A stretch of DNA of 64,000 nt from an uncultured Pseudomonadota bacterium (GCA_964583525.1 CAZOXD010000004.1:1909-65908); one strand, 5' to 3'. Shown: positions 11,343-64,000, numbered from the stretch's first letter. Program-made: numbers and translations. Notes: generated by a model from the letters alone, not told the origin.

Positions 11343-11388
11343 TGCTCCCACAAAATGGAACACTAGTCGTCAGCGAAAGGAGATCGCC

Positions 11389-40914: not shown

Positions 40915-40920
40915 CCGGCC

Positions 40921-45731: not shown

Positions 45732-45752
45732 CTACACTGTGAAGGGGACAAC

Positions 45753-45842
45753 ATGAAGATTTCGACCATCCTAGATCACATCGATAGCGGCCACATGGCC
45801 CTGCCGAAGTTCCAGCGCGGATATTCCACAGAGGGCTTGTAA
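45753..45842 (+). pseudogene. N-terminal remnant (29 codons) of a DUF262/GmrSD-type gene
   Basis: 'MKISTILDHIDSGHMALPKFQRGYSTEGL*' carries the DUF262 N-terminal signature (l.lPeFQRgyvW), then stops. Confidence 0.5.
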
Positions 45843-45865
45843 TTAGCAGGAATGGGGGTGTGGGG

Positions 45866-46804: not shown

Positions 46805-46887
46805 AAGCTTGCATGATGGCACCCATTGCCGGGAGTGGGACGAGCAGGATTAGGATTTAGTGGCTAAGCACGAGAGAAAGGCGAACC

Positions 46888-47727
46888 ATGGCGCAGCAGG
46901 AATTCGATATTCTTGAGTTCTATCGAGCCGAGGAGGCAGTTCTTCAGGCAAAGCTGGACGCTGCCCGGGCAGTCATCGTCCATGCTGGCGAAAAAGGCAG
47001 AGCTTTGGAATCCGCCGTTTCCGAATTCCTCCGGTCATTCCTGCCTGATGAGTACGGGATCAGCACTGGTTTCATTGTGAGCGAATCGAATGGAACAATC
47101 ACCACAAGTCCGCAGTTGGATATCATCATCTATGACGCTGTCAGAGGCGGCCCGATCGCGCGGCTGGAGTCCTGCGACGTCTTTCCACTCGAATCGGTCG
47201 TCGCGTATCTTGAGGTGAAGACGGCACTCAGGATTTCGGGCGACGACGCCACAATCGATGGGAGCACCAGCAATTCTGTCCTCGCTTGTCTGAATGCGAA
47301 CAGGCGCATCCGGGAAATGCGTCACTGGGATTATCTTCGCCTCGTTCGAGTTCGTGATGGAGCAACAAGTGAGCTCACATTGACAGTAGGACATTCATCT
47401 CTGACCAACATCGCAATTCGCGCGTACGTATTTGCTTTCGAATTGGAAGGCGCAAGGAACATCAGCGACCTTGCGCACAGCCTCATGCACCATTCGAGGC
47501 AGATCGGCGGAGCACACATCCATGGGGTCTTTGTTCCATGCCAGGGTTTCGTGCGCACACTTGCGTTTCAGAATTCACAGACTGAGTACACTACGGATCA
47601 TCCATTGTCGGCCTTTAAGTGGGGTCTGCTGCAAGGCCTGGCTTCCGTGAAACGCATACCATTGAACTGGACTCCGAACATTGAGCGGTATGCCCGCGTG
47701 ACAAGCACTTGGCATAGCGCCCAGTAG
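46888..47727 (+). CDS. Hypothetical 279-aa protein with a PD-(D/E)xK-like core (DUF6602-like, from memory)
   Basis: 'GEKGRALESAVSEFLRSFLP', 'SPQLDIIIYD' and 'VVAYLEVKTAL' give a D...E-x-K arrangement typical of restriction-endonuclease-fold proteins. Confidence 0.5.
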   Translation: MAQQEFDILEFYRAEEAVLQAKLDAARAVIVHAGEKGRALESAVSEFLRSFLPDEYGISTGFIVSESNGTITTSPQLDIIIYDAVRGGPIARLESCDVFPLESVVAYLEVKTALRISGDDATIDGSTSNSVLACLNANRRIREMRHWDYLRLVRVRDGATSELTLTVGHSSLTNIAIRAYVFAFELEGARNISDLAHSLMHHSRQIGGAHIHGVFVPCQGFVRTLAFQNSQTEYTTDHPLSAFKWGLLQGLASVKRIPLNWTPNIERYARVTSTWHSAQ

Positions 47728-47752
47728 ACGTTCCAAACCAAAGGAAAGTGTC

Positions 47753-50700
47753 ATGAACGTCTTCGAGTTTCGCGACAGCATCATCAAGGACTACGAGCGC
47801 TTCACCCGGAGCTTCGCCAACATCAGGAGCGAGGACATCCGGGAGTACGTGAGCCAGCAGTACGACGAGGGGCGCTTCTGGCCTTCCCCTTACGTCCAGC
47901 TCAATCCCAACTTCGTGCAGGGAGGTTCCATCGACGAGTTGGTGGACTCGGGCACCCTTCACGCGGAGTGCAAGAGTATTTTCCGCCGCGATAAGGATCG
48001 GGTCGAAGGCGGAAAACTGATGCAGCTCCACAAGCATCAGGTGGATGCCATTCACGTGGCAAAACGGGAGGAAAGCTACGTTCTGACAACCGGCACCGGT
48101 TCAGGAAAGTCCCTGTCTTACTTCATTCCCATCGTGGATGACGTTCTTCGACGCAAGGCATCAGGGGAGGCGGACAACCGCATTTCGGCCATAATCGTCT
48201 ACCCCATGAATGCCCTATGCAACAGTCAGCTCAGCGAACTCCAGAAGTTTCTGGAGAAGGGTTACGAGAACAGGGGCGGCCCTCCGGTGACCTTCGCCCG
48301 TTACACCGGCCAGGAATCGCAGGAAGAACGCCTGAAGATCGCGGCGAATCCGCCGGACATCCTGCTCACCAACTACGTGATGCTGGAGTTGATCATCACC
48401 CGACAAAACGACACGGATAAAGCGGTGGTGCAGCGTGCCGAAGGACTGCGCTTCCTCGTGCTTGATGAACTCCACACCTACCGGGGCAGGCAGGGTGCCG
48501 ATGTCTCGATGCTCGTGCGTCGGGTGCGCAACCGCTTCAACGACAACCTGCTTTGCGTAGGCACCTCTGCGACCATGGCCAGCGAGGGCGGCTTGGCGGA
48601 TCGCAACCGCGTCGTAGCCGAATTCGCGACCAAGCTATTCGGCACGCAGGTGAAACCAGAGAACATCATCACGGAGTCTCTCGCTCGCATCACGCCGGAG
48701 TCCACGCCAACAGACGCGTCCTCGCTGGCGCAGGCTATTCGCGTTGGGATCGGGGGAGACCCCGCCTATGACATTCTAGTCCAGAGTCCCATCGCAGCGT
48801 GGATCGAAACGCGCCTCGGACTGGAGTGGAAAGAAGAACAATGGGTGCGGATCTCCGAATCTCTCAAGTTGGATGAGGCCATCGAGGGCTTGGCGGAGGA
48901 AAGCGGGGTGCCTGTAGAGCAATGCGGAGGGTTCCTGACGGCCTTCCTCCTTCGCTGCTTTCAGGTCAGGTCGGCTCATGGGCACACGCTATTCGCGTTC
49001 CGGCTGCACCAGTTCATCGCGGGAGCTGGCGATTGCTATGCGACGCTGGAAGCGCCGGGTAAACGGTTTATCACGGTTGAAGGCCAGGAATTTCAACCCG
49101 GGACGCTTGAACGGAAAGATGAATCCAAGCGGGGAGCCAAGCGTCTCTTCAACCTCGCCTTCTGCCGACAATGCGGTCAGGAGTACTTCCCAGTTTGGGC
49201 TTACTCTGTCGGAAAGCAGGTGGATCACTTCGATCCCCGCGAACTGGGGGAGCGCGCCCACGAGGAAAGCACCGATGTCCAATCCGGCTTTTTCCTGCCG
49301 GATGAAGAGAACATCTTCGATAGCGAGGATATCGAGGGAGGTGCCTACCCAGAAGACTGGATCGAACCCGGAAGCGGCCTTCTCAAGCTGAAACCGCACT
49401 TCCGCAAGTACAAGCCACAGCAGATCCAGGTTACGGCCCTTGGTTCGGTGGGTTCAGGGCTACAGGGATGGTACATCCCCGGATCCTTCCGCTTCTGCCT
49501 AAGGAGTGATTGCACGTCCGAAGGCGGCGGTACCCGACGTTCAGAACTGACTCCGCTTTCTTCCCTCTCGACCGAAGGGCGCAGTTCAGCAACGACGGTG
49601 CTAACGCTGTCAGCCCTTTCCTTTCTAATGGGGAGTTCTAGCGAGCTGAGCGCGGAAGCCAGGAAGATACTGGCCTTCACCGACAATCGCCAGGATGCGG
49701 CACTTCAGGCTGGGCACTTCAACGACTTTATTTACACCCTGCTTCTACGTTCAGCCCTCCTGGCAGCCATCCGCTCTGCACCTGACGGCATTCTGAAAGA
49801 AGACATTCTTACCCAGAGCGTCCAGGAACAACTTGGGCTGCACATCCTTGAATTCTCCAGCCAAGATGTTCGTGGCCCGGCTGCGAGGAACACGGAATCG
49901 ACCTTCCGTGATGTTCTCGGTTATCGCCTGTTCCACGACCTTCGTCGTGGCTGGCGAATCGCCAACCCTAACCTTGAGCAATTGAGGCTGCTAAACATTC
50001 ATTACGAGGGCTTGGATGAGTGCTGCAAGGATGAAGAAATGTGGGCTGAGGTTCCCCTCCTCGCAAGCGCAGATCCTTCCACCAGGGGGAAGATTGCGCA
50101 CTCTCTGCTGGATGAGATGAGGAAGGGGCTCTGCATCAAAACCCAGTACCTGGACTATCAGTTCCAAGAGCAAATCTGGACGCGGAGCTATTCATTGCTC
50201 AAAGAGCCCTGGGGAATCTGGGAAGGAGAAATCAAGCAGAGCGCAAACGTGATGATCCCTCGCCCGTCACGAAAACAACTCGGCAGAGGAACACACCAAT
50301 TCAACATCTTCAATATCTCATACCGCTCAGCCTTTGGGCGGAGACTCAAGCGGCGCTCCATTTGGGGTGATGAAAACTCCCACTACCCTGAGCGGTTCGA
50401 TGAGTCCGAGTTCAATCAGGTGGTGGATCACCTGCTAAACGCCCTGGCGACTTACGGATTGGTGGAACCGGTCGAGACCGATGGTGCCGAACAGGGTTAC
50501 CGTCTCATGGCCTCTGTTATCCTGTGGCAGGAAGGAAATCCCGAAGGCACCTCGCCCAACGAGTTCTTCCAAACCCTCTACGACAACCTCTCCGAAATGC
50601 TGAGTGCGGGAGATCGGCTCATGCACCGATTGCACGCTCATGAGCATACGGCACAAGTTGAACCTCAGGTTCGGGAACAGCGTGAAGGGGAATTCAGAAC

Positions 50701-52990
50701 CGGAGCATTGCCGGTACTGTTCTGCTCTCCCACCATGGAACTGGGAGTTGATATCAGTACCCTCAACACCGTCTACATGCGGAATGTCCCTCCCACGGCT
50801 GCCAATTATGCCCAACGTAGCGGGCGTGCAGGCAGGGCAGGGCAACCGGCCCTTGTGCTTACCTATTGCACCGCCAAGTCGCCACACGATCAATACTTCT
50901 TTCAGGCTCCCACCAGGATGGTGTCCGGCATCGTATCTGCGCCAAGCATCGACCTGGCAAATGAGGATCTCATCCGGAGCCACCTGCACGCCGTGTGGTT
51001 GGCTGAAACAGGTTGCCGTCTCCCGGACGGTGTGAGAGATGCACTCGACCTTGACCAAAAGGAAGAATTGCCGGTTCAGCAGGAACTGCAGGCGAATCTC
51101 ACCCCTATACCGCCAGCACAAAGAGCAACCCAAAGAGTGACGGCCATGTTGGCCCATCTCTCCGAGGAACTAACTCCTGAGATGGCTCCCTGGTATGGCG
51201 CAAATTGGGTTGAGGCTGTGATTTCTGGTGCCTACCTACAGTTTTCACTGTCATTCGAGCGGTGGCGTTCGATGTATCGGGCGGTACTCAAGCAGATGGA
51301 TGAGGCAAGGGCCATCCAACAAAACCATGCCGTCACTGAAAGGGAGCGGAAGGAAGCCGACCTGCGATATCAGGAAGCGCGAAGCCAATACGAAATCCTG
51401 ATCTCGAATCGCCCCGGAATGACTTCGGACTTCTACACCTACCGCTACCTTGCGAACCAAGGATTCTTGCCTGGTTACAATTTCCCCCGTCTTCCCTTGA
51501 TCGCCTATCTGCCAGGCCGCCGGGAGAAGAACCTTCGCGATACCTACCTCAGCCGTCCTCGCTTTCTTGGGTTGTCGGAGTTCGGCCCTCAATCCATCAT
51601 CTACCACGAGGGCGGAACCTACAGGGTCAAGCGGGCAATCTTGGGGAGCAGAGATGAGCAATCTGCGACTGCAACCGCAGAATTGCCTGTAATCAAGGCC
51701 CGACTTTGTCCAGCCTGCGGCTATGCACACTTCGATGGGGAGCGAGATTACGAGCGGTGCGTTATTTGTGATGAAATACTGAGTGATGGACGGTGGCTGG
51801 GTGATCTCTACCGCATTGATCAGGTCAGCACCAGAAGGGCGTTTCGAATTACTTCCGATGAAGAGGAGAGGCAACGGCTCGGCTACGAGATGATCACAAC
51901 ACTTCGTTACGCTCAGGAAAACGGCAGGGCAATGTACGTGCCGGTAGTCTATAGCGAGGCTGGGGAAAAGTTACTCGAAATCCGATATGGAGCCAGCGCT
52001 CGGTTGTGGCGGATCAACTTGGGATGGCGGAGAAGGAAGGACAAGAACATTCTCGGTTTCAATATCGACGTGATCAATGGTGAATGGGTGAAGGATGAGC
52101 ACGCTCCCCAGGAAATGGCCGAAGGGGATGAGCTGGCTCCAGGCAAGCAAGTCCAACGTATTACTCCCTTCGTCGAAGACACTAAGAACTGTTTGGTTGT
52201 CGTTCCCCTTATTGCCTTGGAGGAACATACCTCCATCACCTTCCAGTACGCGTTGAAGCGGGGGATCGAATCGGCCTTTCAATTGGAGGGGTCTGAGCTG
52301 GCTGTGGAGGCACTTCCCACTTCATCTACCAGGAACTGTATCTTGCTCTACGAAGCCTCTGAAGGTGGTGCGGGCGTATTGACACGATTAGCCCGTGATC
52401 CAGGCGCAATGAGGAAAGTTGCCATCCATGCCTTGGAGTTGTGTCACCACCAGTCAGTTTCGGGTTCCTGGGCGGGTGTTGATGACCTTAGAAACACTGA
52501 TGATGGCTGCGAGGCGGGTTGCTACCGATGCCTGTTGAGCTATTCAAATCAAATGGATCACAAGCAGATTGATCGACAGGATGAAGATATCGTCGATTTC
52601 TTATGTAGGTTGTCCCGCAGTGACTCTGAAGTCGGCGCGGCTGGTCGAACTAATGAAGAGTTGATCCGCGAGCTGGAAAACCTATCTACATCACCGCTGG
52701 AAAAGGAATGGCTTCGATATATCATCGACGAGGGACTTCGACTTCCGGACAAAGCCCAAACTCTGCTTGAGGATTTCAACACACGCGCAGACTTTTCCTA
52801 CACTGCGGTTCCCGCTGCAGTTTTTGTCGATGGGCCGCACCACGAAACCCCTCAAGCCCAGGAAAAAGACGAAGAGATAACCGGTCGCCTGGTCGACGCG
52901 GGGTTTACCGTTGTGCGCTTTCCAAGGCACAAGGAGCGATGGGGAGAAATCGTGAACGAGTATGGTTTTGTCTTCAGAAGTCTGTCATAA
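47753..52990 (+). CDS. 1745-aa fusion: DEAD/DEAH helicase + DUF1998 Zn-ribbon + C-terminal DUF559/Vsr-like endonuclease-fold domain (DrmA+DrmB-like; also resembles MrfA/DruE-type helicases)
   Basis: 'LTTGTGSGKSLSYFIP' (motif I), 'LVLDELHTYRGRQGADV' (motif II), 'CVGTSATMA' (motif III), 'YAQRSGRAGRAG' (motif VI). DUF1998 'CEAGCYRCLLSYSNQMDHKQIDR' lies at about 52507-52570. The tail 'AVFVDGPHHETPQAQEKDEEITGRLVDAGFTVVRFP' is like a DUF559-type nuclease. Confidence 0.85.
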   Translation: MNVFEFRDSIIKDYERFTRSFANIRSEDIREYVSQQYDEGRFWPSPYVQLNPNFVQGGSIDELVDSGTLHAECKSIFRRDKDRVEGGKLMQLHKHQVDAIHVAKREESYVLTTGTGSGKSLSYFIPIVDDVLRRKASGEADNRISAIIVYPMNALCNSQLSELQKFLEKGYENRGGPPVTFARYTGQESQEERLKIAANPPDILLTNYVMLELIITRQNDTDKAVVQRAEGLRFLVLDELHTYRGRQGADVSMLVRRVRNRFNDNLLCVGTSATMASEGGLADRNRVVAEFATKLFGTQVKPENIITESLARITPESTPTDASSLAQAIRVGIGGDPAYDILVQSPIAAWIETRLGLEWKEEQWVRISESLKLDEAIEGLAEESGVPVEQCGGFLTAFLLRCFQVRSAHGHTLFAFRLHQFIAGAGDCYATLEAPGKRFITVEGQEFQPGTLERKDESKRGAKRLFNLAFCRQCGQEYFPVWAYSVGKQVDHFDPRELGERAHEESTDVQSGFFLPDEENIFDSEDIEGGAYPEDWIEPGSGLLKLKPHFRKYKPQQIQVTALGSVGSGLQGWYIPGSFRFCLRSDCTSEGGGTRRSELTPLSSLSTEGRSSATTVLTLSALSFLMGSSSELSAEARKILAFTDNRQDAALQAGHFNDFIYTLLLRSALLAAIRSAPDGILKEDILTQSVQEQLGLHILEFSSQDVRGPAARNTESTFRDVLGYRLFHDLRRGWRIANPNLEQLRLLNIHYEGLDECCKDEEMWAEVPLLASADPSTRGKIAHSLLDEMRKGLCIKTQYLDYQFQEQIWTRSYSLLKEPWGIWEGEIKQSANVMIPRPSRKQLGRGTHQFNIFNISYRSAFGRRLKRRSIWGDENSHYPERFDESEFNQVVDHLLNALATYGLVEPVETDGAEQGYRLMASVILWQEGNPEGTSPNEFFQTLYDNLSEMLSAGDRLMHRLHAHEHTAQVEPQVREQREGEFRTGALPVLFCSPTMELGVDISTLNTVYMRNVPPTAANYAQRSGRAGRAGQPALVLTYCTAKSPHDQYFFQAPTRMVSGIVSAPSIDLANEDLIRSHLHAVWLAETGCRLPDGVRDALDLDQKEELPVQQELQANLTPIPPAQRATQRVTAMLAHLSEELTPEMAPWYGANWVEAVISGAYLQFSLSFERWRSMYRAVLKQMDEARAIQQNHAVTERERKEADLRYQEARSQYEILISNRPGMTSDFYTYRYLANQGFLPGYNFPRLPLIAYLPGRREKNLRDTYLSRPRFLGLSEFGPQSIIYHEGGTYRVKRAILGSRDEQSATATAELPVIKARLCPACGYAHFDGERDYERCVICDEILSDGRWLGDLYRIDQVSTRRAFRITSDEEERQRLGYEMITTLRYAQENGRAMYVPVVYSEAGEKLLEIRYGASARLWRINLGWRRRKDKNILGFNIDVINGEWVKDEHAPQEMAEGDELAPGKQVQRITPFVEDTKNCLVVVPLIALEEHTSITFQYALKRGIESAFQLEGSELAVEALPTSSTRNCILLYEASEGGAGVLTRLARDPGAMRKVAIHALELCHHQSVSGSWAGVDDLRNTDDGCEAGCYRCLLSYSNQMDHKQIDRQDEDIVDFLCRLSRSDSEVGAAGRTNEELIRELENLSTSPLEKEWLRYIIDEGLRLPDKAQTLLEDFNTRADFSYTAVPAAVFVDGPHHETPQAQEKDEEITGRLVDAGFTVVRFPRHKERWGEIVNEYGFVFRSLS

Positions 52991-53011
52991 GGCCAGCCGT
53001 ATCGCCGATGA

Positions 53012-53170
53012 GGTCTTATCGCACTCGGCTTGGTCGGCGCAAATGTGACTGTGACACTTGAAGTGGAGGCGGAGATACCGTCAGGAGCACCGGATCATGT
53101 CGTCCGTACAGTTACCGAAAACGCTCGGACGCTAAAGTTCAAAGAACATTCCGGGTTCGAGGAGGAGTAA
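53012..53170 (+). pseudogene. Orphan C-terminal tail (52 codons) of an unrelated large gene
   Basis: 'GANVTVTLEVEAEIPSGAPDHVVRTVTENARTLKFKEHSGFEEE*' has no N-terminal part (in-frame stop at 53009-53011). From memory, this '..VRTV.ENARTLKF...FEEE' tail ends DUF499-type defence ATPases (unverified). Its TAA overlaps the next ATG (TAATG). Confidence 0.4.
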
Positions 53171-54720
53171 TGGCCAAGACGAGCGCAACCCACCCGCTCC
53201 AAATTAATGGAGTGGTCATCGACCAAGGTCAAGGCGAAATTGGGTTGACCTTCTGTCCCGGCAAGATGCAGCCAGATGCAATGTCCGGCTCGTGGGACAG
53301 AGACTTGTCCACAGATATGGCGGTGATCTCAGGTTACGGCGCAAAAGCACTCGTCACTCTGATGGAAGAGCACGAGTTGATTGAGTTGGGTGTTCCTGCC
53401 GAAACCATCGAACAAGCGGCCAATGCACACGGCGTCGAGTGGTATCACCTTCCAATTCGAGATGTCAGCACGCCAGACAAATCGTTCGAATCTGCCTGGG
53501 GGTATGCCGGGATTCGGTTGCGTAAGCTGCTCGCGGGGGGAAATCGGATAGTGCTGCACTGCAAAGGGGGATTGGGGCGTACAGGAACTATCGCGGCGCG
53601 CTTGCTAGTCGAACTTGGCGAAGAGGCAAGTTCTGCAATCGCCCGTGTCCGCAAGACTCGCCCCGGTGCAATTGAAACAAGAGAACAGGAAGACTATGTC
53701 CGTCAATGCCCGGTGATAGAGAACTCTCTTCGATCACTTTCAACTTCAGAGCGTGCATGGGCGTGTGTGCTTGGTGGAGCTATCGGGGATGCTTTCGGTT
53801 ATGAGGTAGAGTTCAGTAGTTGGGCAGCAATTCAACAACGGTTCGGCGAAAAGGGCATCCAAGAGCCGGTCATGCAGGGTGGACGTTTGGTCGTCTCCGA
53901 CGACACCCAAATGACGCTGTTCACTTTAGAGGGGATCCTACGAGGTACGAGACGAGGTAGGGATTCTGAAGCCATTCTCGACTCGATCCGCGACGCATAT
54001 CTTGATTGGTACGGCACACAGCGAAGTCTGGATGGTGGTAGGCAACCCGTTGGTGAACTTGCGCGTATAAAGGAAATCCGTGTTAGCCGTGCGCCTGGCA
54101 ATACTTGTCTTTCGGCTTTGGGAGCCGGTGGGCACGGAAGCCCCGAAAATCATATCAATGATTCCAAGGGGTGTGGCGGAGTGATGCGGGTAGCCCCTAT
54201 TGGGTGGTTTGACCAATTCAGTGACAAAGAAGTGTTTGACGTAGGAGCGCGGGCAGCCGCCCTCACCCATGGTCATCCCACGGGGTACCTGGCCTCAGGA
54301 ATGATGAGCGCAATTATCCACTCGCTGATGAAGGGGAAAACCCTGAAGGATGCGGTAAAGGGGACTTTGACAATTCTGGAGGGATGGTCAGATCACAAGG
54401 AAACTCTGGTGGCTGTGACACAGGCAATGGAATTGGCTGAGGACGATACCATTTCCACACATGAGGCGGTAACGAAACTGGGAGAAGGATGGATTGCCGA
54501 AGAGGCTCTAGCAATCGGTCTGTACGCTGCTCTCAAGGGGAAGAATTTCCAGAACGTACTTGCCATTGGAGCGAATCACAGCGGGGATTCAGATAGTACA
54601 GCCTCAATTGCGGGTCAGCTTTGGGGGGCTTGGCAGGGGCTGAACGGTATTCCACAACGCTGGATTCAGTCACTGGATATATACCGACCGCTTACATCGC
54701 TGGTCGGCCAGGCGCGGTAA
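53170..54720 (+). CDS. Fusion of a Cys-based PTP/dual-specificity phosphatase-like domain and an ADP-ribosylglycohydrolase (ARH/DraG family) domain
   Basis: The N-terminal domain has '[19 protein letters not shown]' (HCx5R(S/T) P-loop). The C-terminal domain has '[15 protein letters not shown]', 'SDDTQMTLF' and '[16 protein letters not shown]', the ARH metal-binding motifs. Confidence 0.85.
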
Positions 54721-54722
54721 AG

Positions 54723-54947
54723 CTGATGGGTGACGATGCCCTACGCGCCATCGCCCAGGAACTGCTGACCACGGTGCGCAAGAACGCGACCATCGACTGG
54801 TCAGTCAAGGCCAACGTCCGGGCCAGGATGCGGGTCATGGTGAAGCGAATCCTGTGCAATCACGGTTAACCACCGGACATGCAGGAAAAGGCCACCCAGA
54901 CCGTCTTGGAGCAAGCAGAATTGATGGCTGAAGACTTGGCGGCGTGA
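54723..54947 (+). pseudogene. hsdR: Orphan 3' tail of a type I restriction hsdR gene (copy 1), with an in-frame TAA
   Basis: '[73 protein letters not shown]' matches the conserved HsdR C-terminal region and copy 2 at 61355-61579. The TAA at 54867-54869 replaces the Tyr (TAT) of copy 2. Confidence 0.7.
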
Positions 54948-54976
54948 ATAAATGGAGGGTGGTGCAAGGGGATAGG

Positions 54977-55336
54977 ATGGGTAAGACTGGCGTTATACCC
55001 GAACAGATTGGACGATTCAAGCTGCGGGACTGGCATGAATTCTACGACCGTGGGGATGACTACGAATGTGTGGTGATCGATCCACATGACGAACGGCACA
55101 GCCGATTGATTCCACGGTCATATGTTGACGACGCAAGGCGCGTCCTATCCGGAGGGGAATGGTCAGTGAACGAAGCCAGACAGGCTCTTTTGGAAACAGC
55201 GGTTCGGAAGGTCTGGAAGTTTAGAAAGGGGCACAAGTACCAATACTATGTGCAGGACATCTTATTGATCCTGGTATCATTGGGGGATGCAGTCCATCGG
55301 GAAAAAGGGCGGGCGTACTGGTATGAAGTCTTCTGA
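54977..55336 (+). CDS. Hypothetical 119-aa protein
   Basis: ORF with an 'aagggga' RBS before ATG 54977. An alternative GTG at 54944 overlaps the hsdR-tail stop (GTGA). No motif recognised. Confidence 0.4.
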   Translation: MGKTGVIPEQIGRFKLRDWHEFYDRGDDYECVVIDPHDERHSRLIPRSYVDDARRVLSGGEWSVNEARQALLETAVRKVWKFRKGHKYQYYVQDILLILVSLGDAVHREKGRAYWYEVF

Positions 55337-55430
55337 CGGTATCATCGAACCGATTTATGCCTGCTGGAAATCATCAATCAACGGCCCCGGAAGAATTTGG
55401 GGATAACGAAGAAGCCATAGGGGATACAGG

Positions 55431-56393
55431 ATGATAAAGCAGCAACTAGGGAATTTAAAACAGATCAATCTTCGTGAGGTCTGGGAAAATGAAGCATCCG
55501 ATTTCACCCCTTGGTTAGCTGATCAAATCCAAATTCTTGGCGAAGCCATTGGTATGGATTTGGATGTGACAGGTCAAGAAGAAGCGGTTGGGCCATTCAG
55601 TGCGGACATAGTCTGCGAAGACAATACAACAGGACAGAAAGTCGTGATCGAAAACCAATTGGGGAAAACGGATCACGATCATCTAGGAAAATCGCTAACC
55701 TATGCATCAGGATTGAAGGCCCATTGTGTTGTTTGGGTATCGGAACGGTTCACAGAAGAACACCGCGCAGCCCTGGATTGGCTGAACGATATAACGGGCG
55801 ACGACTTTCGATTTTTTGGAGTCGAAATTGAACTGTGGCAGATAGGTGAATCCCAACCAGCCCCTAAATTCAATTTGATCAGTAAGCCCAACGAATGGTC
55901 AAAGGCGATTCGCCAGGGACAAACGTCTGGAAAATTGACGGAAACCCAGCAGCTTCAGTTGCGATACTGGACATCCTTCAAAACATTCATGGAGGAACAA
56001 AATAGTCCATTGCGATGTCAAAAGGCAGGGGCCTATGGTTACATTCAAGTTTCGATAGGGAAAACTGGGTTTCACCTTGCAGGTGTAGTATCCAGTTGGA
56101 ACCTTGAAAGTGGTGTATTAGAAAAAGAAATCAGGGCAGAACTGATCCTTCAAGGTAAGAATGCAGTGGATCACTTCAACACATTAGGAACTTCAAAACC
56201 AGAAATTGAATCCGAATTAGGGGAACCGTTGACCTGGTATGACCCCGAACAAACCATGCAACGACGAATCTATCTGAAGAAGAACGTCGATTATGGTGAT
56301 GAATCCAGTTGGCCGGAACAACACGCTTGGATGAAGGAAAAATTGGAAAAAATGAATCATGTTTTTCGGGAACGGGTGGGGAAGTTGGATTAG
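55431..56393 (+). CDS. DUF4268-like protein with an N-terminal PD-(D/E)xK-like segment
   Basis: 'FSADIVCED....KVVIENQLGKTDHDHLGKSLTY' (nuclease-fold-like) and 'LQLRYWTSFKTFMEE' (DUF4268-type, from memory). This family is commonly embedded in R-M loci. Confidence 0.6.
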   Translation: MIKQQLGNLKQINLREVWENEASDFTPWLADQIQILGEAIGMDLDVTGQEEAVGPFSADIVCEDNTTGQKVVIENQLGKTDHDHLGKSLTYASGLKAHCVVWVSERFTEEHRAALDWLNDITGDDFRFFGVEIELWQIGESQPAPKFNLISKPNEWSKAIRQGQTSGKLTETQQLQLRYWTSFKTFMEEQNSPLRCQKAGAYGYIQVSIGKTGFHLAGVVSSWNLESGVLEKEIRAELILQGKNAVDHFNTLGTSKPEIESELGEPLTWYDPEQTMQRRIYLKKNVDYGDESSWPEQHAWMKEKLEKMNHVFRERVGKLD

Positions 56394-56546
56394 ATTACAG
56401 ACGATCAATACATCACCTTGCTAATCGTCCTGGCCGCCGACATCGTCGATCAACTGGAAGCGGCCCTGGAAGAATTTCGGGGGATCGAGGAGGCGTTGGA
56501 GGCGGATCAACCCGATTCAAACTGAACCTTTTGGTTCTTAGGCAGA

Positions 56547-59500
56547 ATGACCCTACCAAACTTCGACTGGAAACTGATTCGTTCGATTGACGGATCGCAG
56601 AACGCTGCATTTGAGGCGCTCATCTGCCAACTCGCATACTCAGAAGTACCTGAAGGCTCATCCCGTGTTCGCAAAGGTACCCCAGACGCCGGTGTGGAGT
56701 TCTTTTGCACCCTCAAAAACGGAGAGGAATGGGCATGGCAGGCTAAGTTCTTCGACGCACTTGGGGATTCGCAGTGGGCCCAGATCAACGATTCTGTAAA
56801 GACCGCCATCGAGAAACACCCAAAGCTAGCTCGATACTACGTGTGCGTTCCTGTTGATCGTGCCGATCCTAGAATCCCGGACCGGACATACAATCTTGAT
56901 AGGTGGACCAGGTATGAAAAGCGCTGGCTCAAACACGCAGAAGAACGCGACATGTCGGTTGAATTTGTCTACTGGGGAAATCAGGAACTAATTGATCGAA
57001 TCAGCCTGCCAGAGAATCGAGGTCGGTTATTGTTTTGGTTTGATGCTCGGTATTTCGACCAGAATTGGTTCCAGGAGCGATTGGATGACGCGGTCAAGGC
57101 TGCTGGACCTCGCTACACGCCAGAATTGAATGTTGAGCTTCCGATTGCATCTACTTTCGATTCGTTTGGTCGGACCCAGAAGTTCTTCGATTCACTGAAG
57201 GCGCATGCCCCGAAAATCCATCGATGGTCGCGCTATTTCTTGCGTGAGAAGAAACCTGACGAAAAACAGATTGATGCGAATGTCGATGATCGACTGATGG
57301 CAGAACTTGTGAAGGTCGATGAATGCGCAATTTCTGCCCACGGGTTAGCAGAATCCGTCGTCATTGCCTTGGTTAAGCTTGAAACTAACCGTTCGGGCCC
57401 GATCGAAAAACTGGTGAGTCTCTCACAGATCGCTTCCGAAGCGGTCCGGGCCTGTCGGGCTATGCACGAGGCAATCTGGGAAGCACGTAGTACAAAAGCC
57501 GAACTGGAAAAGGAGCAAGCCCCGAAGGAGACTCTCGCGGGATATCACCCCGAACCGTTGCGAGAACGCGAGGGCAAAGTAGATCGCCTTTGGCGCTCGC
57601 TCCACCATCTTGAATCCTTTCTAGACAGCACGCTGAAATATGCCAAATCACCGGTGATGGTTCTCACTGGACGCGCCGGGACGGGCAAGTCTCATCTCCT
57701 GTGTGATGTAGCAAGTCAGCGAGTTTCCGCCGGACTGCCAACGATCCTATTAATGGGCCATCAATTCCTCAGTAAAGACCCACCTTGGTCGCAAGCACTA
57801 AAGCTACTCGATTTCGAGGGGTACTCAGCCGATCAATTTCTCGGTGCGTTGGAGTCAGCAGCCCAAACGGTAGGCGAGCGTGCATTGATTATGGTCGATG
57901 CAATAAACGAAGGCGCTGGCAGGACAATCTGGCCAGCGCATTTGGCATCGTTCCTTGCCCAATGCGAGCGATCTGATTGGATTTCAGTGGTGCTGTCAAT
58001 TCGGACCTCGTACGAGGAAGCAATGATACCCAAGGAAACCCGGAATCAAGCCGCGACTGTCGCACATTACGGCTTTGCCGAGCATGAATACGAAGCTTCA
58101 AAAACGTTCTTCGATTACTACGGTATTGAGCGACCCAGCGCGCCAATACTGATTCCTGAGTTCGATAATCCGCTGTTTCTGAAGACGCTGTGCTTGGGTT
58201 TGCAGAACAAGAAACCGCCACGACTTCCAAGAGGCTTGCAGGGAATCAGCGAGACGTTTCGAGGGTATCTGTCAGCGGTAAACGCCAGTCTGGCGGAACG
58301 TTTGGATTATGACCCGGCTGAGAATTTGGTGGAACGTTCGGTCGAGCGATTTGCTGAACGCCTTGCTGGTTTGGACAGTCGTTGGCTAGTGCTAGCCGAC
58401 GCGAAGGAATTGGTCGATATCTCTCTGCCGGGTCGTGGATTCGAAGACTCCCTGTTTCAGGCGTTGGTCTCCGAAGGTGTGCTCGTACGAGAAATGGCGG
58501 CGACCGACAAAGACGAACTCGAAGAGGTCGTGCTCCTTGGATATGAACGGTTGTCAGACCATCTCATTGTTCACAGGCTCCTCGACCTGCACTTCCGCCA
58601 AGACCGCCCAAAGTCGGCATTCAGCAAGAAGGGGCCGCTCGCACGCTATGTCGATGACAAGAACTATGTCCCGCATGGAGTTTTGGAAGCGTTTTGCATT
58701 CAGATTCCAGAGCGGATTGGGAAGGAGCTATTTGACCTTGTCCCGCAAGTGTTGGAGGCATACGAATTTTCAGATGCCTTCTGCCAAAGTCTGATCTGGC
58801 GTCGGCCTGATGCATTCTATGAATCCACATTCCGAATGATTGGCAACCTAATTGCTTCCAGCTACCACCGCGATCAGATACTAGACAGTATTCTGACGCT
58901 CGCGATCATTCCGGAACACCCCCTCAACGCGATCCGATTGAACAAGAACTTGTTGCGCTATTCAATGGCCGACAGGGATGCTTGGTGGAGTACATTCTTG
59001 CACAGCACATGGGGGGGGCATGGCGCTGTTGATCGAATTGTTGACTGGGCCTGGTCCGTCGAGGTTGACCAAGAGATCGAAGACGAATCTGTGGACCTCT
59101 GTTCAACTGTGCTTGCCTGGTTTTTCACCACCTCAAATCGATTCCTGCGCGATCGCGCGACAAAGGCACTGGCAAACCTACTAACTAACCGCTTGAAAGT
59201 CGCTAGTCGCATCGTTGAACGATTCCACGAAGTGGACGACCCATATGTTACTGATCGGGTCTTCGGTTCGGTGTATGGGGCCGTGCTTCGGTCAAGCGAA
59301 TCTTCAGACCTCGGAAGTGTCGCACAACTCGTTTTCGACATTGTCTTCAAGGAAGGGCGTCCTCCTCCGAATATCCTGCTACGCGACTACGCGAGGGGAA
59401 TCGTCGAACAGGCGTTGCTGCGCGGTCTCCAGGTGGAAGGGGACATGAACCGAATTCTCCCCCCTTACAAGAGCGATTGGCCGCACATACCGACAAAGAA

Positions 59501-61241
59501 GGAAATCTCACCTTATACAGCGGACTGGTCCAAGGGTTCATACGATAGTGGAAGTCTTGATTGGTCTCGAAACATGATTGCGACATCGGTGTTCCATGAC
59601 GATTTCTCCCATTATGTCATCGGTGAACACAGCCTGAGGGGAAACTGGATTTCAACCAGACTTGGAAAACCAAGGTGGAAATCCACGAAGATCAAATTAT
59701 CTGAACTTGTGAAACGGTTTACGCCGGATCAAAGGAAAGCATGGGATCGATTCGAGCAAGTCGACGAGAAATTTAGAACTGAAACTCCTATTCGGATTCT
59801 ATTCCGATTTGATTCAGCCAGCGATGAACCCTCCCAGAAGTCAGAAGAATCGGTGGCTGCTAAGAGGCGATATGCAGGCTTGAAGGGAGCTAGAACACGC
59901 GCGCTGAAGGCGCTGATAAATGAATTGGATGAACGCAAGCGAAACCGGTTCGTCAAGCTTTTCATAAAGGAAATGGAAGGGACTGAGTACCGTCCGAAAG
60001 GCATTCTCTCAGAACCAATCAAGCGTTTTATTCTTTGGCGAGCTTTCGACCTTGGATGGACGGTCGAAAGGTTCGGAAATTTTGATCGAAACCAAGTGGA
60101 TCGGGTTGGCAGGGAATCGAAAAAAGCGGAGCGAATTGGGAAGAAGTATCAGTGGATCGCCTACCATGAAATTTTTGCTCGGATTTCGGACCGATTCCAG
60201 TTTTGGGATGGTGAATCTAATTTTGAGGAGGCTCAAGGATACAAAGGACCCTGGCAATCGGACAACCGGGACATCGACCCTTCATGCATATTGCCAAGCA
60301 CCAGTGGTGGAACAACCTGGAGTGAGCACAAGCTCTGCTGGTGGGCTCCAGTTTCACACCTTGACTGGCGAGCCAATCTCGATCACATCGCGTGGATTCG
60401 AAGCATCGAAGACGTACCAGAGGTTGATCCTTCGATTCTTGTCACCAACCCTCAGGATGACTCTAATTGGGTTAATCTTCATTGTTCACTCACTTGGCAT
60501 CAGCCCGTGCCAGCCGAGGTCGATCGTTTAGAATCCGTACGGAGGCAAATCTGGATGCATCTCACAGGCTACTTGGTTCGTGCGGAGGATCAGGTGAAAT
60601 TTATGCAGTGGGCCGAAGGCGTGGACTTCTTAGGCGGTTGGATGCCCGACATTGGATCAACTAGAGGCATGTTCCTCGGTGAACACCCCGCGTCGTCCGC
60701 CGCTGTCTATTTTCAAAATCCGTACTACAGCAACGATGGATGGATACGACCGCGAAAAGATTGTCCAGTTTCCGTGCTTTCACCCGCTGCCTGGTATGCG
60801 AGCGAGATCAGTAGCTTCGATTGCTCGGTGAAAGACAACTTCTCACTCCACATTCCCTCCAAGCAAGTCATGGAGGCAATGAAGCTGAAATGGAGTGGAC
60901 GAAACGCAGAGTTTTTGAACGACGTTGGACATCTTTCGGCATTCGATCCGGCTGCTCAGTCTAACGGTCCCAACGCATTCCTGATGAATCGGCGCGAACT
61001 CACTGATCATCTTGCTGAACGTCAACTTGGCATTTGCTGGGTCATTATAGGAGAGAAGCAGGTCTTGCAGAGTGACTGGGGTCAGACCCCCTCTCCGGGT
61101 CGCCTTCGAATTTCCGGCGCTAGCGCGTTGAGCACTACGAAGGAGGGGCTTAAGGGCTTTCTACAATGCAAGCTCGAACAGTGGGATGAGACGACACACC
61201 AGCAATCCGAAACGTCGGTGGGAACGATCCCCATACACTGA
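56547..61241 (+). CDS. 1564-aa protein: N-terminal Mrr/PD-(D/E)xK-like nuclease + P-loop (STAND-like) NTPase + very large C-terminal region (Avs-like architecture)
   Basis: N-terminus '[10 protein letters not shown]...[11 protein letters not shown]....WAWQAKFF' (D, E, Q-x-K). Walker A '[16 protein letters not shown]'. Walker B '[11 protein letters not shown]'. About 1000 aa follow without a recognisable motif. Confidence 0.75.
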
Positions 61242-61579
61242 TCGCCCTGGCCAAGGAAATGCGGGATGCCGAGCGCCGGGGTGACGGCCTGGGCCTGACG
61301 GACGATGAGGTGGCCTTCTACGAAGCCCTGGAGGTAAACGACAGCGAGGTGCAGGTGCTGGGGGACGACACCTTGCGTACCATCGCCCAGGAACTGCTGG
61401 AAACGGGGCGGAAGAACGCCACCATCGACTGGTCGGTCAAAGAGAACGTCCGCGCCAGGATGCGGGTCATGGTGAAGCGCATCTTACGGAAGCACGGGTA
61501 TCCACCGGACATGCAGGATAAAGCCACACAGACTGTCCTGGCACAGGCCGAACTGATGGCCGAAGGGCTGGCGGCGTGA
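61241..61579 (+). pseudogene. hsdR: Orphan 3' tail of a type I restriction hsdR gene (copy 2, longer and intact in frame)
   Basis: '[112 protein letters not shown]' is the HsdR C-terminal region. It begins exactly at the stop of the 1564-aa gene, and no helicase part is present. Confidence 0.75.
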
Positions 61580-61597
61580 TCTGATTACAGAAAGCCA

Positions 61598-61745
61598 TCA
61601 TAGGCAAACACTGTTCCAACACCCGAACGATGAACCGGCCAGCGTGCTACTGGAACGGATCAAGGCCGAACGGGCGACAGGAGGGAGCGGGAAGGGGAAG
61701 CGGGGGCGTATAGTCAACAAATCTGAATCCGTAACGGGTACATAG
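61598..61745 (+). pseudogene. Orphan C-terminal tail resembling R-M specificity/MTase subunit ends (copy 1)
   Basis: 'LFQHPNDEPASVLLERIKAERATGGSGKGKRGRIVNKSESVTGT*'. From memory, the 'PNDEPAS.LLERI+AER' tail ends HsdS or type IIG proteins. Its stop lies 2 nt before the next ATG (61748). Confidence 0.4.
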
Positions 61746-61747
61746 CC

Positions 61748-62380
61748 ATGGGCACTATCAAGGCGGTGGGCTTCTGCCCTCATTGTGGCAATAAAGCCCC
61801 CCAGGAATTGCGGTTTTCACATGAATTCCTTACATACGCTTTTAAATCAGATGGCACCAAGATTGAAAATGAGGTTCCGGCCAAATACTTCGTTTCCACA
61901 TGCGGAACTTGTCAGGAGGTTCTTTTATACTTACATGAAGTCGAACACATCAACGATGACGATTTCATCAAAGCCGATCTTGTCTGGCCAGACGAAGGGA
62001 ACCTTCCATCTACGGTTCCTGAATCTGTCAAACGGTGCTATGAGGAAGCCGCCAGCATCAAGAGAATTGCTCCTAATGCATTCGCTGTACAAATTCGCCG
62101 TGCAATTGAGGCCATATGTGATGATCGGGGAATTAAACAAGGAACGTTGGTAAAACGTCTTGTTGAATTGTCGTCAAAAGGTGAACTTCCTGCGTTGTTA
62201 TCAGAAATGAGTGATGCACTCCGAATTGTAGGAAATATCGGTGCCCATAGTGCAGAGCAAGACGTAAAGCCAATATATGTAGATGCTATCGATGGATTCT
62301 TTCGCGCAATCATTGAGTACGTATACATTGCGCCTGGAAAACTTGCTGAATTTAGAACACGGTTGGGCGATTTAAAGTAG
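61748..62380 (+). CDS. DUF4145-like protein with an N-terminal Zn-ribbon
   Basis: 'CPHCGNK...CGTCQ' (four Cys). 'CYEEAASIKRIAPNAFAVQIRRAIEAICDDRGI' and 'LRIVGNIGAHSAEQD' are the DUF4145 pattern as I recall it. Confidence 0.65.
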   Translation: MGTIKAVGFCPHCGNKAPQELRFSHEFLTYAFKSDGTKIENEVPAKYFVSTCGTCQEVLLYLHEVEHINDDDFIKADLVWPDEGNLPSTVPESVKRCYEEAASIKRIAPNAFAVQIRRAIEAICDDRGIKQGTLVKRLVELSSKGELPALLSEMSDALRIVGNIGAHSAEQDVKPIYVDAIDGFFRAIIEYVYIAPGKLAEFRTRLGDLK

Positions 62381-62391
62381 GTGAAACGCTT

Positions 62392-62649
62392 GTGGACAAC
62401 CTGAAGCAGTTCCGCATCGATTCCGACCATGTCAGCGAAACGGATCAACAGTCCGTGGGCCAAGTTGTCCCCCAAGACACAAACGACAAACCGGTAAGTG
62501 TCCTGCTGGAACGGATCAGGGCTGAAAGGACGGCCCAGGGGAACGGGAAGGCGAAGCGGGGGCGGGGTAGGGGGAGGCCAAGGCGCAGGTCAAAGATCAC
62601 CATTCGAAACGAAGAAATGCAGCACAAAATGTGTAAGAGGAGAGAATGA
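62392..62649 (+). pseudogene. Orphan C-terminal tail resembling R-M specificity/MTase subunit ends (copy 2)
   Basis: 'VVPQDTNDKPVSVLLERIRAERTAQGNGKAKRGRGRGRPRR...*' is homologous to 61616-61709. Its stop lies 1 nt before the next ATG (62651). Confidence 0.4.
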
Positions 62650-62650
62650 T

Positions 62651-63133
62651 ATGGCACGTTGCACACGAATAAGGGCGCTCAATTGGACGATTGCCGCAAA
62701 GGTTTCTGGCCGCCTACTTGAATTCGGATTGATCGCCGCAGGGATTTGGATTGCATATGGGCAACTATCTGCAATCAATGATCAAATGGACAAGGCGGCG
62801 GCTACATCTCATGCTAGCTTTGAATTGTCCCTTCAAAAGATTGGATGGGAACTACAGGACGAACGTAATCGCATTATGAAGACAGATGTTGCCGCAATAA
62901 ATCTGCATCTAAATAAGGTAATTAGCTATTATTCTATGATGTACGATTTCCGGAAGCTGCATCAAATCAGAAAGGATGTATGGAAAACTATGCTCATTGA
63001 CATGAGGGAATTCTTTTCCCAAAAGTTGGTACAAGCGATATGGAAAAGGAAAAGTAAATACTACGGTGATGAGTTTCCAGTCTTTGTTACCATGTGTTTG
63101 ATGAAATCAGATAAAACAAAATGCAAATTGTAA
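62651..63133 (+). CDS. Hypothetical 160-aa single-TM protein
   Basis: ATG 62651 ('MARCTRIRALNW'). Hydrophobic helix 'LLEFGLIAAGIWIAYGQL'. Strongly AT-richer than its flanks. The track ORF from 62498 is an upstream read-through of the tail region. Confidence 0.45.
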   Translation: MARCTRIRALNWTIAAKVSGRLLEFGLIAAGIWIAYGQLSAINDQMDKAAATSHASFELSLQKIGWELQDERNRIMKTDVAAINLHLNKVISYYSMMYDFRKLHQIRKDVWKTMLIDMREFFSQKLVQAIWKRKSKYYGDEFPVFVTMCLMKSDKTKCKL

Positions 63134-63145
63134 TGAGGAATAAAA

Positions 63146-63769
63146 ATGAAAACGGCATCTATTATAAAAAATGTATGCATCTATCTATTCCCATTATTAT
63201 GCTTCTTTCTATTATCCGACCCGGCCGAAGCCAAATGGTACTGTCAGCCAGACGATACTACCGCTGGCTCTCAGTTGGAGAGGCTTAAAGAATACACCGG
63301 CCCTGGAAGCAAGGATTTCTTCGCTGCGCTTGAACTAATAGCCCGGTTGATTTTAGCATTGGAAGACGGGAAAATTGAAGAAGCAAAAAGATCCCAGAAA
63401 AGTGCTATTGAATATTTATCAAGAGCGTTGAATGGATATCTAAAAGCAAGTGACATCACATCGAGTCCTACGCTTGCGAGCCGGCTTGCGGCAGTTAACA
63501 TAAGGGAAATATCACGATTTTCGAGCGTTCCTGTGGGAGATCAGACCTTTAAACCACTTGAAAGATTAAATGCTGCGTTTATAACTCCGACTGTTATCAA
63601 GCGGACATTTATTGAAATCTGCGTGCGGCCTATCAGCGAATTGCATGATGCATTGAGACAGCTTATACCAGGCGTAGAGGATGGAACAACCAATCTACTA
63701 CGGCTGTGGAGCAATTCCATCACCTCGGGGCTGATAGGCTCCGGTTGGCTTCGTTTGAGTTTCCGCTAG
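63146..63769 (+). CDS. Hypothetical secreted protein (signal peptide)
   Basis: 'MKTASIIKNVCIYLFPLLCFFLLSDPAEA' is a signal-peptide-like leader. It lies 12 nt after the previous gene and is AT-rich. Confidence 0.5.
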   Translation: MKTASIIKNVCIYLFPLLCFFLLSDPAEAKWYCQPDDTTAGSQLERLKEYTGPGSKDFFAALELIARLILALEDGKIEEAKRSQKSAIEYLSRALNGYLKASDITSSPTLASRLAAVNIREISRFSSVPVGDQTFKPLERLNAAFITPTVIKRTFIEICVRPISELHDALRQLIPGVEDGTTNLLRLWSNSITSGLIGSGWLRLSFR

Positions 63770-63792
63770 ATTGTCTAGCGAAGGAAGATTCA

Positions 63793-64000
63793 ATGCCAAA
63801 CCACAGCGCCACCATCGTCAACAAGGTCTGGAACTACGCCCACGTCCTACGGGACATCGGCCTTTCCTACCTGGACTACGTCGAACAGATCACCTTCCTG
63901 CTGTTCCTGAAGATGGCCCAGGAACGTGTGGAAATCGGTTAAGGGAACGGCATCCCGGTGGATTACGCTTGGCCCACCCTGGTCGGAAAAAGTGGGGACG
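63793..64000 (+). pseudogene. hsdM: Type I R-M methyltransferase subunit HsdM, N-terminal part, interrupted by an in-frame TAA; runs off the window
   Basis: 'MPNHSATIVNKVWNYAHVLRDIGLSYLDYVEQITFLLFLKMAQER' is the HsdM_N signature. An 'aaggaag' RBS is present. The TAA at 63940-63942 is followed in the same frame by 'GNGIPVDYAWPTLVGKSGD', open to the window end. Confidence 0.7.

Follow-up and report, generated by a model that had tools for sequence, protein, structure and literature searches.

Orphan 3' ends of restriction-system genes between putative anti-phage genes in an uncultured Pseudomonadota bacterium

Orphan gene ends in a one-directional array

In a 64,000-nucleotide stretch of DNA from an uncultured Pseudomonadota bacterium (GCA_964583525.1, CAZOXD010000004.1:1909-65908; hereafter the window, in which all positions are counted from the first letter), we identified seven 3' ends of restriction-system genes, six of them clear and one weak, within positions 52,991-62,649. 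These stubs derive from one DUF499/Swt1-HEPN ATPase gene, two hsdR genes, one or two hsdM genes and two hsdS genes; each comprises approximately the last 40-110 codons of its parent gene, and the array as a whole spans ~11 kb. Between them lie intact genes for a phosphatase plus ADP-ribosylglycohydrolase protein (ARH), a PDC-S11/DUF4268 protein, an Avs2 protein and a DUF4145 protein, together with three open reading frames (ORFs) without family match. From 47.7 kb to the end of the window every gene lies on the + strand, with almost no gaps. The explanation that we favor, with middling confidence, is that the array grew by serial non-homologous loss of restriction genes, which left their 3' stubs in place.

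A first-pass annotation of the window had listed six orphan C-terminal ends in this region; all six are present at or near the places that it gave them, and tblastn and Pfam matched them to the ends of restriction-modification (R-M) genes. The tblastn queries were four full-length plasmid proteins, namely HsdR, HsdM, HsdS and a Swt1-HEPN/DUF499 ATPase. Tail 4 (61238-61579) corresponds to amino acids (aa) 920-1032 of HsdR: it covers positions 220-328 of 329 of PF11867 (T1RH-like_C; E 4e-47), aligns at 61238-61573 with aa 920-1031 of the 1032-aa HsdR (60% identity, E 3e-37), and retains an uninterrupted frame, with a 106-aa ORF starting at ATG 61259. It had been annotated as starting exactly at the stop of the 1564-aa gene, which holds for the location and not for the boundary, the tail starting at 61238 with the TGA of that gene, avs2, inside it. 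Tail 2 (54712-54947), the hsdR C-end from aa 956 to 1032, covers PF11867 positions 256-328 at 54714-54947 (E 2e-30), aligns with HsdR aa 956-1031 at 54714-54941, and is interrupted by an in-frame stop at 54867-54869.

Tail 1 (52991-53170) is the 3' terminus, ~59 codons long, of a DUF499/Swt1-HEPN (BrxC-like ATPase) gene and matches the C-end of plasmid Swt1-HEPN/DUF499 proteins at 74% identity (E 2e-14; tblastn, 7.3 Gb of plasmids). Its orphan nature and its TAATG overlap with the following gene had been recognized correctly; the start, earlier placed at 53012, lies at ~52991, immediately after the stop of the DruE-like gene that anchors the stack on the left, and the match (52992-53167) is split over two frames by a 4-nucleotide (nt) deletion near 53025, a frameshift that had gone unnoticed. 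Tails 5 (61580-61745; …HPNDEPASVLLERIKAER…) and 6 (62381-62649, with clear homology from ~62443) are hsdS C-ends, which together span aa 432-490 of the 532-aa HsdS (E 1e-5 and 5e-9, respectively, in the window search), tail 5 matching aa 432-477 at 61581-61724 and tail 6 aa 434-490 at 62443-62595. Tail 3 (56394-56525) matches HsdM aa 459-491 of 496 at 56427-56504; this match is weak alone (E 0.04) and is strengthened by the motif AAxIxxxLEAALEEF, shared with one class of HsdM C-ends, and by homology (E 7e-6) to an orphan hsdM-type tail on a 2.6-kb contig from a different sample (L124). Searches against annotated plasmids returned the same gene names. The weak seventh tail (55337-55434; …APEEFGDNEEAIGDTG*) presents a 34-nt match to tail 3 (79%) that is at chance level by itself; its position and frame are suggestive, and it is probably an hsdM C-end remnant.

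Self-comparison of the window bore out the reported nucleotide-level homology both of the two hsdR tails and of the two tails labeled LLERI+AER, here tails 5 and 6: the hsdR repeat (54712-54947 and 61344-61579) is ungapped and 81% identical and the hsdS repeat (61616-61708 and 62472-62564) 77% identical, with longest identical runs of 26 nt in tails 2 and 4 and 13 nt in tails 5 and 6. At the level of sequence, similarity far above chance confirms the tails as genuine ends of restriction-system genes. The 120 best matches to tail 4 were all 106-198 aa long, which prompted us to consider a separate family of short HsdR C-end proteins. This candidate was ruled out: the length peaks fall at conserved Met or Val residues, HMMER penalizes long targets, the source contigs are mostly ~1 kb, and two of the five cases on long contigs are frameshifted full-length genes.

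The four full-length queries matched only C-terminal pieces and an hsdM N-end (63793-64000, cut by the window end; Pfam HsdM_N, E 4e-8). This absence of gene bodies holds for the window, which stops ~200 nt into hsdM, and within it the tblastn searches agree with the earlier description of an hsdM start at 63793 accompanied by no hsdR or hsdS body. The hsdM start also carries an in-frame TAA at codon 50 (63940-63942), downstream of which the frame goes on with good HsdM similarity. With no full-length hsdR, hsdM or hsdS in the window, the type I systems behind the stubs are dead within it.

Structure of the joints

All clear tails retain the native stop codon of their parent gene. The stop of tail 1 overlaps the ARH start (TAATG at 53168), that of tail 2 overlaps the start of the 130-aa ORF (GTGA at 54944), and the TGA of the weak seventh tail overlaps the DUF4268 ATG (ATGA). 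Tail 3 follows the DUF4268 stop directly and in frame and ends 21 nt 5' of the Avs2 ATG, tail 5 ends 2 nt 5' of the DUF4145 ATG, and tail 6 ends 1 nt 5' of ATG 62651; tail 5 itself begins 1-15 nt from the tail 4 stop, with no cassette between the two. The 130-aa ORF (54944-55336; 119 aa if ATG 54977 is used) has no homologue but itself among 5.8 billion protein clusters, and Pfam, PADLOC and NCBIfam are also blank. Its standing as a real gene is uncertain, and in view of the missing homologue its coupling to tail 2 is doubtful.

On the left side, tail homology begins ~0-60 nt from the stop of the preceding gene, and at most 15 nt from it at tails 1, 2, 4 and 5. Two left joints could be resolved to the base. 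At the ARH/tail 2 joint, the alignment of tails 2 and 4 places the beginning of tail sequence at 54712-54714, so that the ARH stop (54718-54720) is tail-derived; tail 2 supplies the last 2-3 ARH codons and the stop, and the 80% relative (P0133) exceeds the resulting protein by 5 aa. At the Avs2/tail 4 joint, tail 4 begins at 61238 (LIALAKEM, the same start as in an orphan hsdR end on a further contig, L126), the Avs2 TGA (61239-61241) lies inside the tail, and the Avs2 protein ends 3-5 residues short of its relatives (C-end comparison, 45 relatives). No homology was found across any of the left joints, which argues that these joints are illegitimate. A scan of 52.5-64 kb yielded no promoter-like or terminator-like sites above chance, and no inverted repeats were found in or beside the stubs.

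The 9-mer GATTACAGA has exactly two copies in the 64-kb window, counting both strands (56393-56401 and 61583-61591), each directly following a stop codon at a joint, and a similar ATTTCAGG opens the hsdM-type tail of L124; this is a post-hoc observation that may reflect chance.

Related arrays and gene fragments in other genomes

Strain-level relatives of the locus were not found, and the comparison draws on a single metagenomic contig and a pair of short comparators. The first of these, L124, carries the only ARH relative at 80% identity (P0133) and aligns to window positions 52391-54711 at 79.9% nt identity. It shares with the window the DruE end (~90% identical over the last 96 codons), the orphan tail 1 right after the DruE stop, there with an intact frame, and the stop/start overlap with ARH. 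Homology stops exactly at the ARH/tail 2 joint (54711), beyond which L124 continues with five extra ARH codons and ~30 nt, followed by an hsdM-type tail and then by the beginning of another gene. An alternative unit behind the same gene, as the first-pass annotation had expected of related loci, is thus observed, with an hsdM-type tail and a different gene where the window has an hsdR tail.

The second comparator, L126, is a 615-nt contig with an orphan hsdR end running from aa ~915 to its stop codon; at the nt level this end shares 83% identity with tail 4 and 85% with tail 2, and it constitutes a 117-aa ORF with an ATG. The stop of an unrelated AT-rich ORF lies within ~10 nt upstream of this tail and another gene lies downstream, and homology to the window is confined to the tail, ceasing at both of its ends. 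Together, these comparisons suggest that the arrays change unit by unit at the joints, with the stubs as shared elements.

Orphan or duplicated gene pieces were also found beside defense cassettes in D. grandis and in loci L050, L086 and L117, the last two with orphan hsdR ends. In L086, L087 and L088 (Joint Genome Institute (JGI) 3300045941, 3300045931 and 3300045926), the last 118 aa of an hsdR remnant form a separate ORF with an ATGA overlap, and the split is identical in the three samples and falls at aa ~910, where three orphan hsdR tails begin. D. grandis pDEGR-2 (L112) presents a ~720-nt direct repeat (6132-6853 and 9656-10761; ~90% identical at the protein level), made up of a reverse-strand gene, a promoter region and the first 78 hsdR codons, which flanks a 2.8-kb DUF4268 block inside an otherwise intact type I locus. 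In L050 (Latescibacterota), a copy of the 5' end (~50-70 codons) of an AMP-binding enzyme gene lies just 5' of Avs2 (7811-7969 and 15803-15961; 85% identical) and the complete gene lies downstream of the Avs2-hsdR block; the island apparently brought a piece of a former neighbor along. A tandem ~600-nt duplication (6427-7026 and 7039-7638; ~88% at the protein level) is likewise located just 5' of Avs2 in another locus (L021), from a Latescibacterota genome.

Divergence, selection and base composition of the tails

The two hsdR tails differ by a synonymous divergence (dS) of 0.79, with a ratio of non-synonymous to synonymous divergence (dN/dS) of 0.13, and the two hsdS tails by a dS of 0.66 with dN/dS 0.28. 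High dS combined with low dN/dS indicates that tails of the same type come from different genes once under selection and are not recent copies, and local duplication was ruled out as their source on these values. The hsdM and hsdS tails belong to type I families different from those of the hsdR tails, so that at least two type I families contributed; a single ancestral operon was rejected as the source of all tails, since an order of R, M, M, R, S, S does not correspond to any operon.

Base composition at third codon positions (GC3) sets the tails apart. The hsdR tails (0.77 and 0.82) and the hsdM start (0.80) are host-like, as are the upstream genes (0.63-0.85); tails 3 and 6 are at 0.64 and 0.69, tails 1 and 5 at 0.54 and 0.58, and the cassettes at 0.40-0.58. 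This contrast indicates different histories for the hsdR/hsdM pieces and the cassettes behind them. An intact Deinococcus type I locus harbors embedded genes with host-like GC3, which shows that the contrast is not a general property of embedded genes.

Few marks of decay are present: tail 1 has its 4-nt deletion, tail 2 its nonsense codon and hsdM its TAA. Comparison of tail 1 between the window and L124, the single orthologous pair on which this selection test is based, revealed 23 synonymous and 9 non-synonymous differences over the last 47 codons (dN/dS 0.064; binomial P 5e-8 against neutrality) and 15 versus 2 over the last 32 codons (dN/dS 0.018), and the conservation is specific to the tail's own frame. 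The body of the DUF499 gene is missing from both the window and L124, at the same joint, and the simplest reading of these substitution patterns is that the orphan tail stayed under selection as a peptide. The locus had been described as decayed. The reduction of its restriction genes to tails and the nonsense codon in hsdM agree with that description, which is not the full account, as tail 1 shows dN/dS 0.06 between two lineages that lack the gene body. Along the alignment with L124, dS forms a mosaic, with 0.44 at the DruE end (199 codons), 1.4-2.2 in tail 1 and ARH codons 1-300, and 0.6 in the 3' part of ARH, which shows recombination within the array.

Proposed routes of array growth

Under the explanation that we favor, serial non-homologous loss, the stretch would be the distal part of a packed, one-directional array of accessory anti-phage genes that grew where several multi-subunit restriction-type systems once sat, with at least two type I families and one DUF1156/DUF499-type system among them. 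The restriction genes would have been destroyed successively via non-homologous joints, by deletion or replacement, each joint fusing the very end of an accessory gene to the interior of the next restriction gene. The left end of a joint would have to fall within the few bases that separate the upstream gene from the start codon of the restriction gene, because any 5' remainder left in place would give rise to a truncated and possibly harmful subunit. What would preserve the 3' stub is that it brings the gene behind it a native stop/start overlap and a ribosome-binding context, perhaps also a promoter, and it would hold ribosomes on a long, promoter-poor transcript.

Several observations weigh against serial loss. 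Random deletion should leave 5', internal and long pieces too, and all seven pieces here (7/7) are short 3' ends; the selective arguments put forward for 3'-only survival are conjectural and leave the shortness of every stub unexplained. Tails 4 and 5 together extend over 505 nt, exceeding what a ribosome-binding context needs, and the frame of tail 2 stops 75 nt before the next ORF, breaking the chain of coupling there. The strong purifying selection on the tail 1 peptide is unexpected for a scar or a nucleotide-level signal, and tail 2, tail 4 and L126, the closest known versions of the hsdR end, are orphans without exception yet differ mostly synonymously (dN/dS 0.13-0.20). Comparison at the strain level is moreover precluded: all ten window proteins tested, each cassette protein among them, are singletons at 90% identity.

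The first-pass annotation had proposed instead that units consisting of an R-M gene end and an accessory gene move among loci and genomes by homologous recombination in the conserved 3' ends, the stubs serving as portable homology and no dedicated recombinase being needed, an alternative that we regard as unlikely. Same-type tails are directly oriented around cassettes (2/4, 5/6 and possibly the weak tail/3), the unit of tail 1 and hydrolase, including its stop/start overlap, is conserved in L124 with dS above 1, the hsdR end is found in three different contexts, the dS mosaic records recombination in the array, and the 26-nt identical run of tails 2 and 4 is borderline enough for RecA-type recombination. 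Homologous crossovers, however, are unable to create orphan tails or non-homologous left joints, and the sole visible break in synteny falls at a joint with different tail types on each side (hsdR versus hsdM). These two points argue against the stacking of cassettes through shared tails; overall, the picture of decay and stacking in the first-pass annotation holds only in part. In addition, tails of the same type are just 77-81% identical, those of hsdS with no more than 13 identical nt in a row, the GC3 of the hsdR and hsdM tails differs strongly from that of the following cassettes, and most relatives of the cassette genes are not located behind R-M genes. Exchange anchored on the tails may add to later shuffling but cannot have made the joints.

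We give somewhat less credence still to a domestication of the stubs, in which the C-terminal pieces of HsdR, HsdM, HsdS and the DUF499 protein would be translated as small proteins and selected, for instance, as regulators of resident restriction complexes or as links between these and the neighboring effector. The frame-specific, predominantly synonymous divergence of tail 1 in two lineages without the gene body is what this account predicts, and it is consistent with the open, ATG-bearing frames of tail 4 and its L126 copy, with the beginning of three orphan hsdR ends (n=3) at aa 912-920, and with the separate ORF formed by the last 118 aa of HsdR in one lineage from three samples, overlapping the previous ORF by ATGA. 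Against it, tail 2 contains a nonsense codon, and the frameshift in the window copy of tail 1 leaves a TTG-started ORF without a visible ribosome-binding site. The low dN/dS of the hsdR stubs could date from their time in whole genes, and the selection test on tail 1 is limited to a single pair. Tail 4 covers the last third of PF11867 rather than the whole domain, and its predicted structure is helical with modest confidence (predicted local distance difference test (pLDDT) score of 68), the model having no fold match in the PDB at E <= 0.001 and the sequence no PDB match. With a similarly low expectation, we consider that the stubs might be working linkers, that is, translated micro-ORFs that would sustain expression, maybe bind partners from the parent complex and at the same time provide portable homology for recombinase-free cassette swaps.

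A site-specific, integron-like array, with the starts or ends of stubs as recombination sites for an enzyme encoded elsewhere, is very improbable. The promoterless, one-directional and tightly packed ORFs, the 130-500 nt spacers of few families, the presence of GATTACAGA after two joint stops and the cessation of L126 homology at both stub ends are features that such an array would display. No integrase, however, was found among the ORFs scanned, as the first-pass annotation had noted, nor did these ORFs, which include many but not all of the small ones, yield a recombinase domain in Pfam. The stubs have no inverted repeats within or at them and are plainly coding sequence of four gene families, their left boundaries vary between copies (HsdR aa 915, 920 and 956), and the shared 9-mer was noticed only post hoc. 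An island of the tRNA or integrase type was ruled out as well: no tRNA gene was found and no integrase among the ORFs scanned, no intact target gene is present, and the same-type tails are only 77-81% identical, at dS 0.66-0.79.

The source is a metagenome-assembled contig of 75 kb, which we compared with other assemblies of the same sample, SAMN11268106, namely a scaffold set from the ENA and a Logan contig. These cover 55097-59210 at 99.4% identity, with N gaps, and 60977-63836 at 100% identity, and reproduce eight joints between them; the first three joints (52990-55097) and the hsdM TAA are seen in one assembly only. A contig misjoined at repeated restriction-gene sequences is barely credible, since the joints are not at repeated sequence, eight of them are reproduced, and the order DruE, tail 1, hydrolase recurs at 80% identity in the different sample of L124, although the same-sample Logan contig is interrupted at two places, within the end of tail 4 and within the hsdM start.

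Accessory genes and their usual neighbors

The first cassette (53170-54720) encodes the 516-aa dual-specificity phosphatase plus ADP-ribosylglycohydrolase protein (Pfam ADP_ribosyl_GH, E 3e-67; Tc-R-P/PTP-SAK). The DUF4268 cassette (55431-56393; 320 aa) corresponds to the PADLOC candidate PDC-S11 (E 1e-115, residues 4-316; Pfam DUF4268 at 79.9 bits against a cut-off of 27, E 2e-22), a family that presumably emerged from a screen for embedded genes. Avs2 (56547-61241; 1564 aa), an AVAST type 2 STAND NTPase, scores 1356 bits against a cut-off of 1000 with the NCBIfam equivalog model NF041813 (residues 184-1530) and covers positions 2-1501 of 1504 of the PADLOC model. The DUF4145 protein (61748-62380; 210 aa; Pfam E 2e-15) is weakly PD-T7-4-like (PADLOC PD-T7-4, E 3e-14). 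The last cassette (62651-63769) consists of two small genes of 160 and 207 aa with no Pfam, PADLOC or NCBIfam match. The defense activity of the array would reside in Avs2, PDC-S11, the DUF4145 protein and the phosphatase-hydrolase.

The first-pass annotation had suggested that accessory genes of this kind normally sit behind R-M genes, and the neighborhoods of their relatives did not sustain this. In reference genomes, hsd or DUF499 genes adjoin Avs2 in ~10 of 80 loci, the Avs2 relatives in GTDB genomes being at most 49% identical. None of the 22 DUF4145 relatives has an adjacent hsd or DUF499 gene, the closest of them lying two genes after a DUF499 gene, and a restriction gene adjoins one of the six DUF4268 relatives. 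For ARH, a DUF499 tail precedes only the 80% relative, and no DUF499 tail or gene was found beside the inspected relatives at 41-59% identity, which include two from plasmids and those at 55-59%. In full-length DUF1156/DUF499 loci, variable defense genes come next.

Other regions of the window

The DruE-like helicase-nuclease gene on the left of the stack (47753-52990, + strand; 1745 aa; PADLOC DruE3, E 4e-99; Pfam DEAD, Helicase_C and MZB) is the final gene of an upstream helicase/methylase system (37864-52990) that also comprises a 1016-aa SNF2 helicase and a 1327-aa Eco57I-like methylase and that matches neither classical Druantia III nor DISARM. Between its methylase and helicase are embedded a 276-aa gene without assigned function, an AbiU2-like HEPN gene and a DUF6602 gene. 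An orphan ~30-codon 5' head of a GmrSD/DUF262-type gene (45717-45809; MKISTILDHIDSGHMALPKFQRGY…*), the sole 5' remnant seen in the locus, sits between the 276-aa gene and the AbiU2-like HEPN gene, with a weak Pfam GmrSD_N match (E 0.15, positions 1-22).

Further upstream, at 10479-13320, a PNP_UDP_1 phosphorylase-family gene overlaps the gene of a 669-aa protein with HEAT repeats and a weak nSTAND3-like NTPase match, under the Pfam cut-off. With this pair, much of the window looks like a large defense region and not like core genome.

Implications and comparison with known systems

For the assembly of defense islands and the embedding of accessory genes, the locus preserves one gene-end joint after another. 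Should the pattern prove general, it would provide testable rules on the sites of joints, the survival of 3' ends and the role of stubs in expression or recombination, and orphan hsd 3' ends would constitute a simple genomic signature for finding unknown defense genes. Functional micro-proteins descended from restriction subunits are a further possibility in view of the purifying selection on tail 1, and, were the stubs indeed working linkers, they would represent a recombinase-free, integron-like route to building defense islands.

Like integron arrays, the locus consists of promoterless, co-directional ORFs arranged stop to start, with short separators of few families. Unlike integrons, it has no integrase among the ORFs scanned and no attC-type inverted repeats, and its separators are the coding 3' ends of hsdR, hsdM, hsdS and DUF499 genes.

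In the Escherichia coli immigration control region and the Neisseria 'minimal mobile elements', alternative cassettes occupy one place and are exchanged without a mobility gene, the presumed route being recombination in conserved neighboring sequence. The term 'minimal mobile elements' is used in PMC1797815 and PMC3787668. In those systems, complete and functional genes form the flanks and cassettes substitute for one another, whereas in the array described here the shared sequences are orphan gene ends, the units stand in series and the joints examined are non-homologous. The alternative units after ARH in L124, with the break at a non-homologous joint, and the different context of the hsdR stub in L126 bear on this comparison, for which two short comparators are available.

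In D. grandis pDEGR-2 and L050, a fragment of a resident gene is likewise orphaned beside an inserted defense block, but these pieces are 5' heads with a full-length twin a few kb away, and those of the window are 3' ends with no full-length copy.

A close parallel in arrangement is offered by the type I R-M, BREX, DISARM and Hma systems that have defense genes embedded in them (Payne et al. 2024, bioRxiv 10.1101/2024.01.29.577857), and by TgvAB, which lies in the type I operon of V. cholerae VPI-2 (PMC11411939). The label 'phage defence candidate' (PDC), which PDC-S11 bears, is used in the former work (bioRxiv 10.1101/2024.01.29.577857). As in embedded systems, the accessory genes of the array are all on the same strand and beside multi-subunit restriction genes, and the upstream helicase/methylase/DruE-like system does contain embedded genes (AbiU2-like and DUF6602). 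The host systems of Payne et al. 2024 (bioRxiv 10.1101/2024.01.29.577857) are intact, those bearing pseudogenes having been excluded; no mechanism of embedding is proposed there, and the word 'recombination' is absent. Here, in contrast, no complete host system is present, and the host genes are all 3' stubs, of four gene types that alternate with cassettes. The locus extends the known theme of embedded genes and defense islands.

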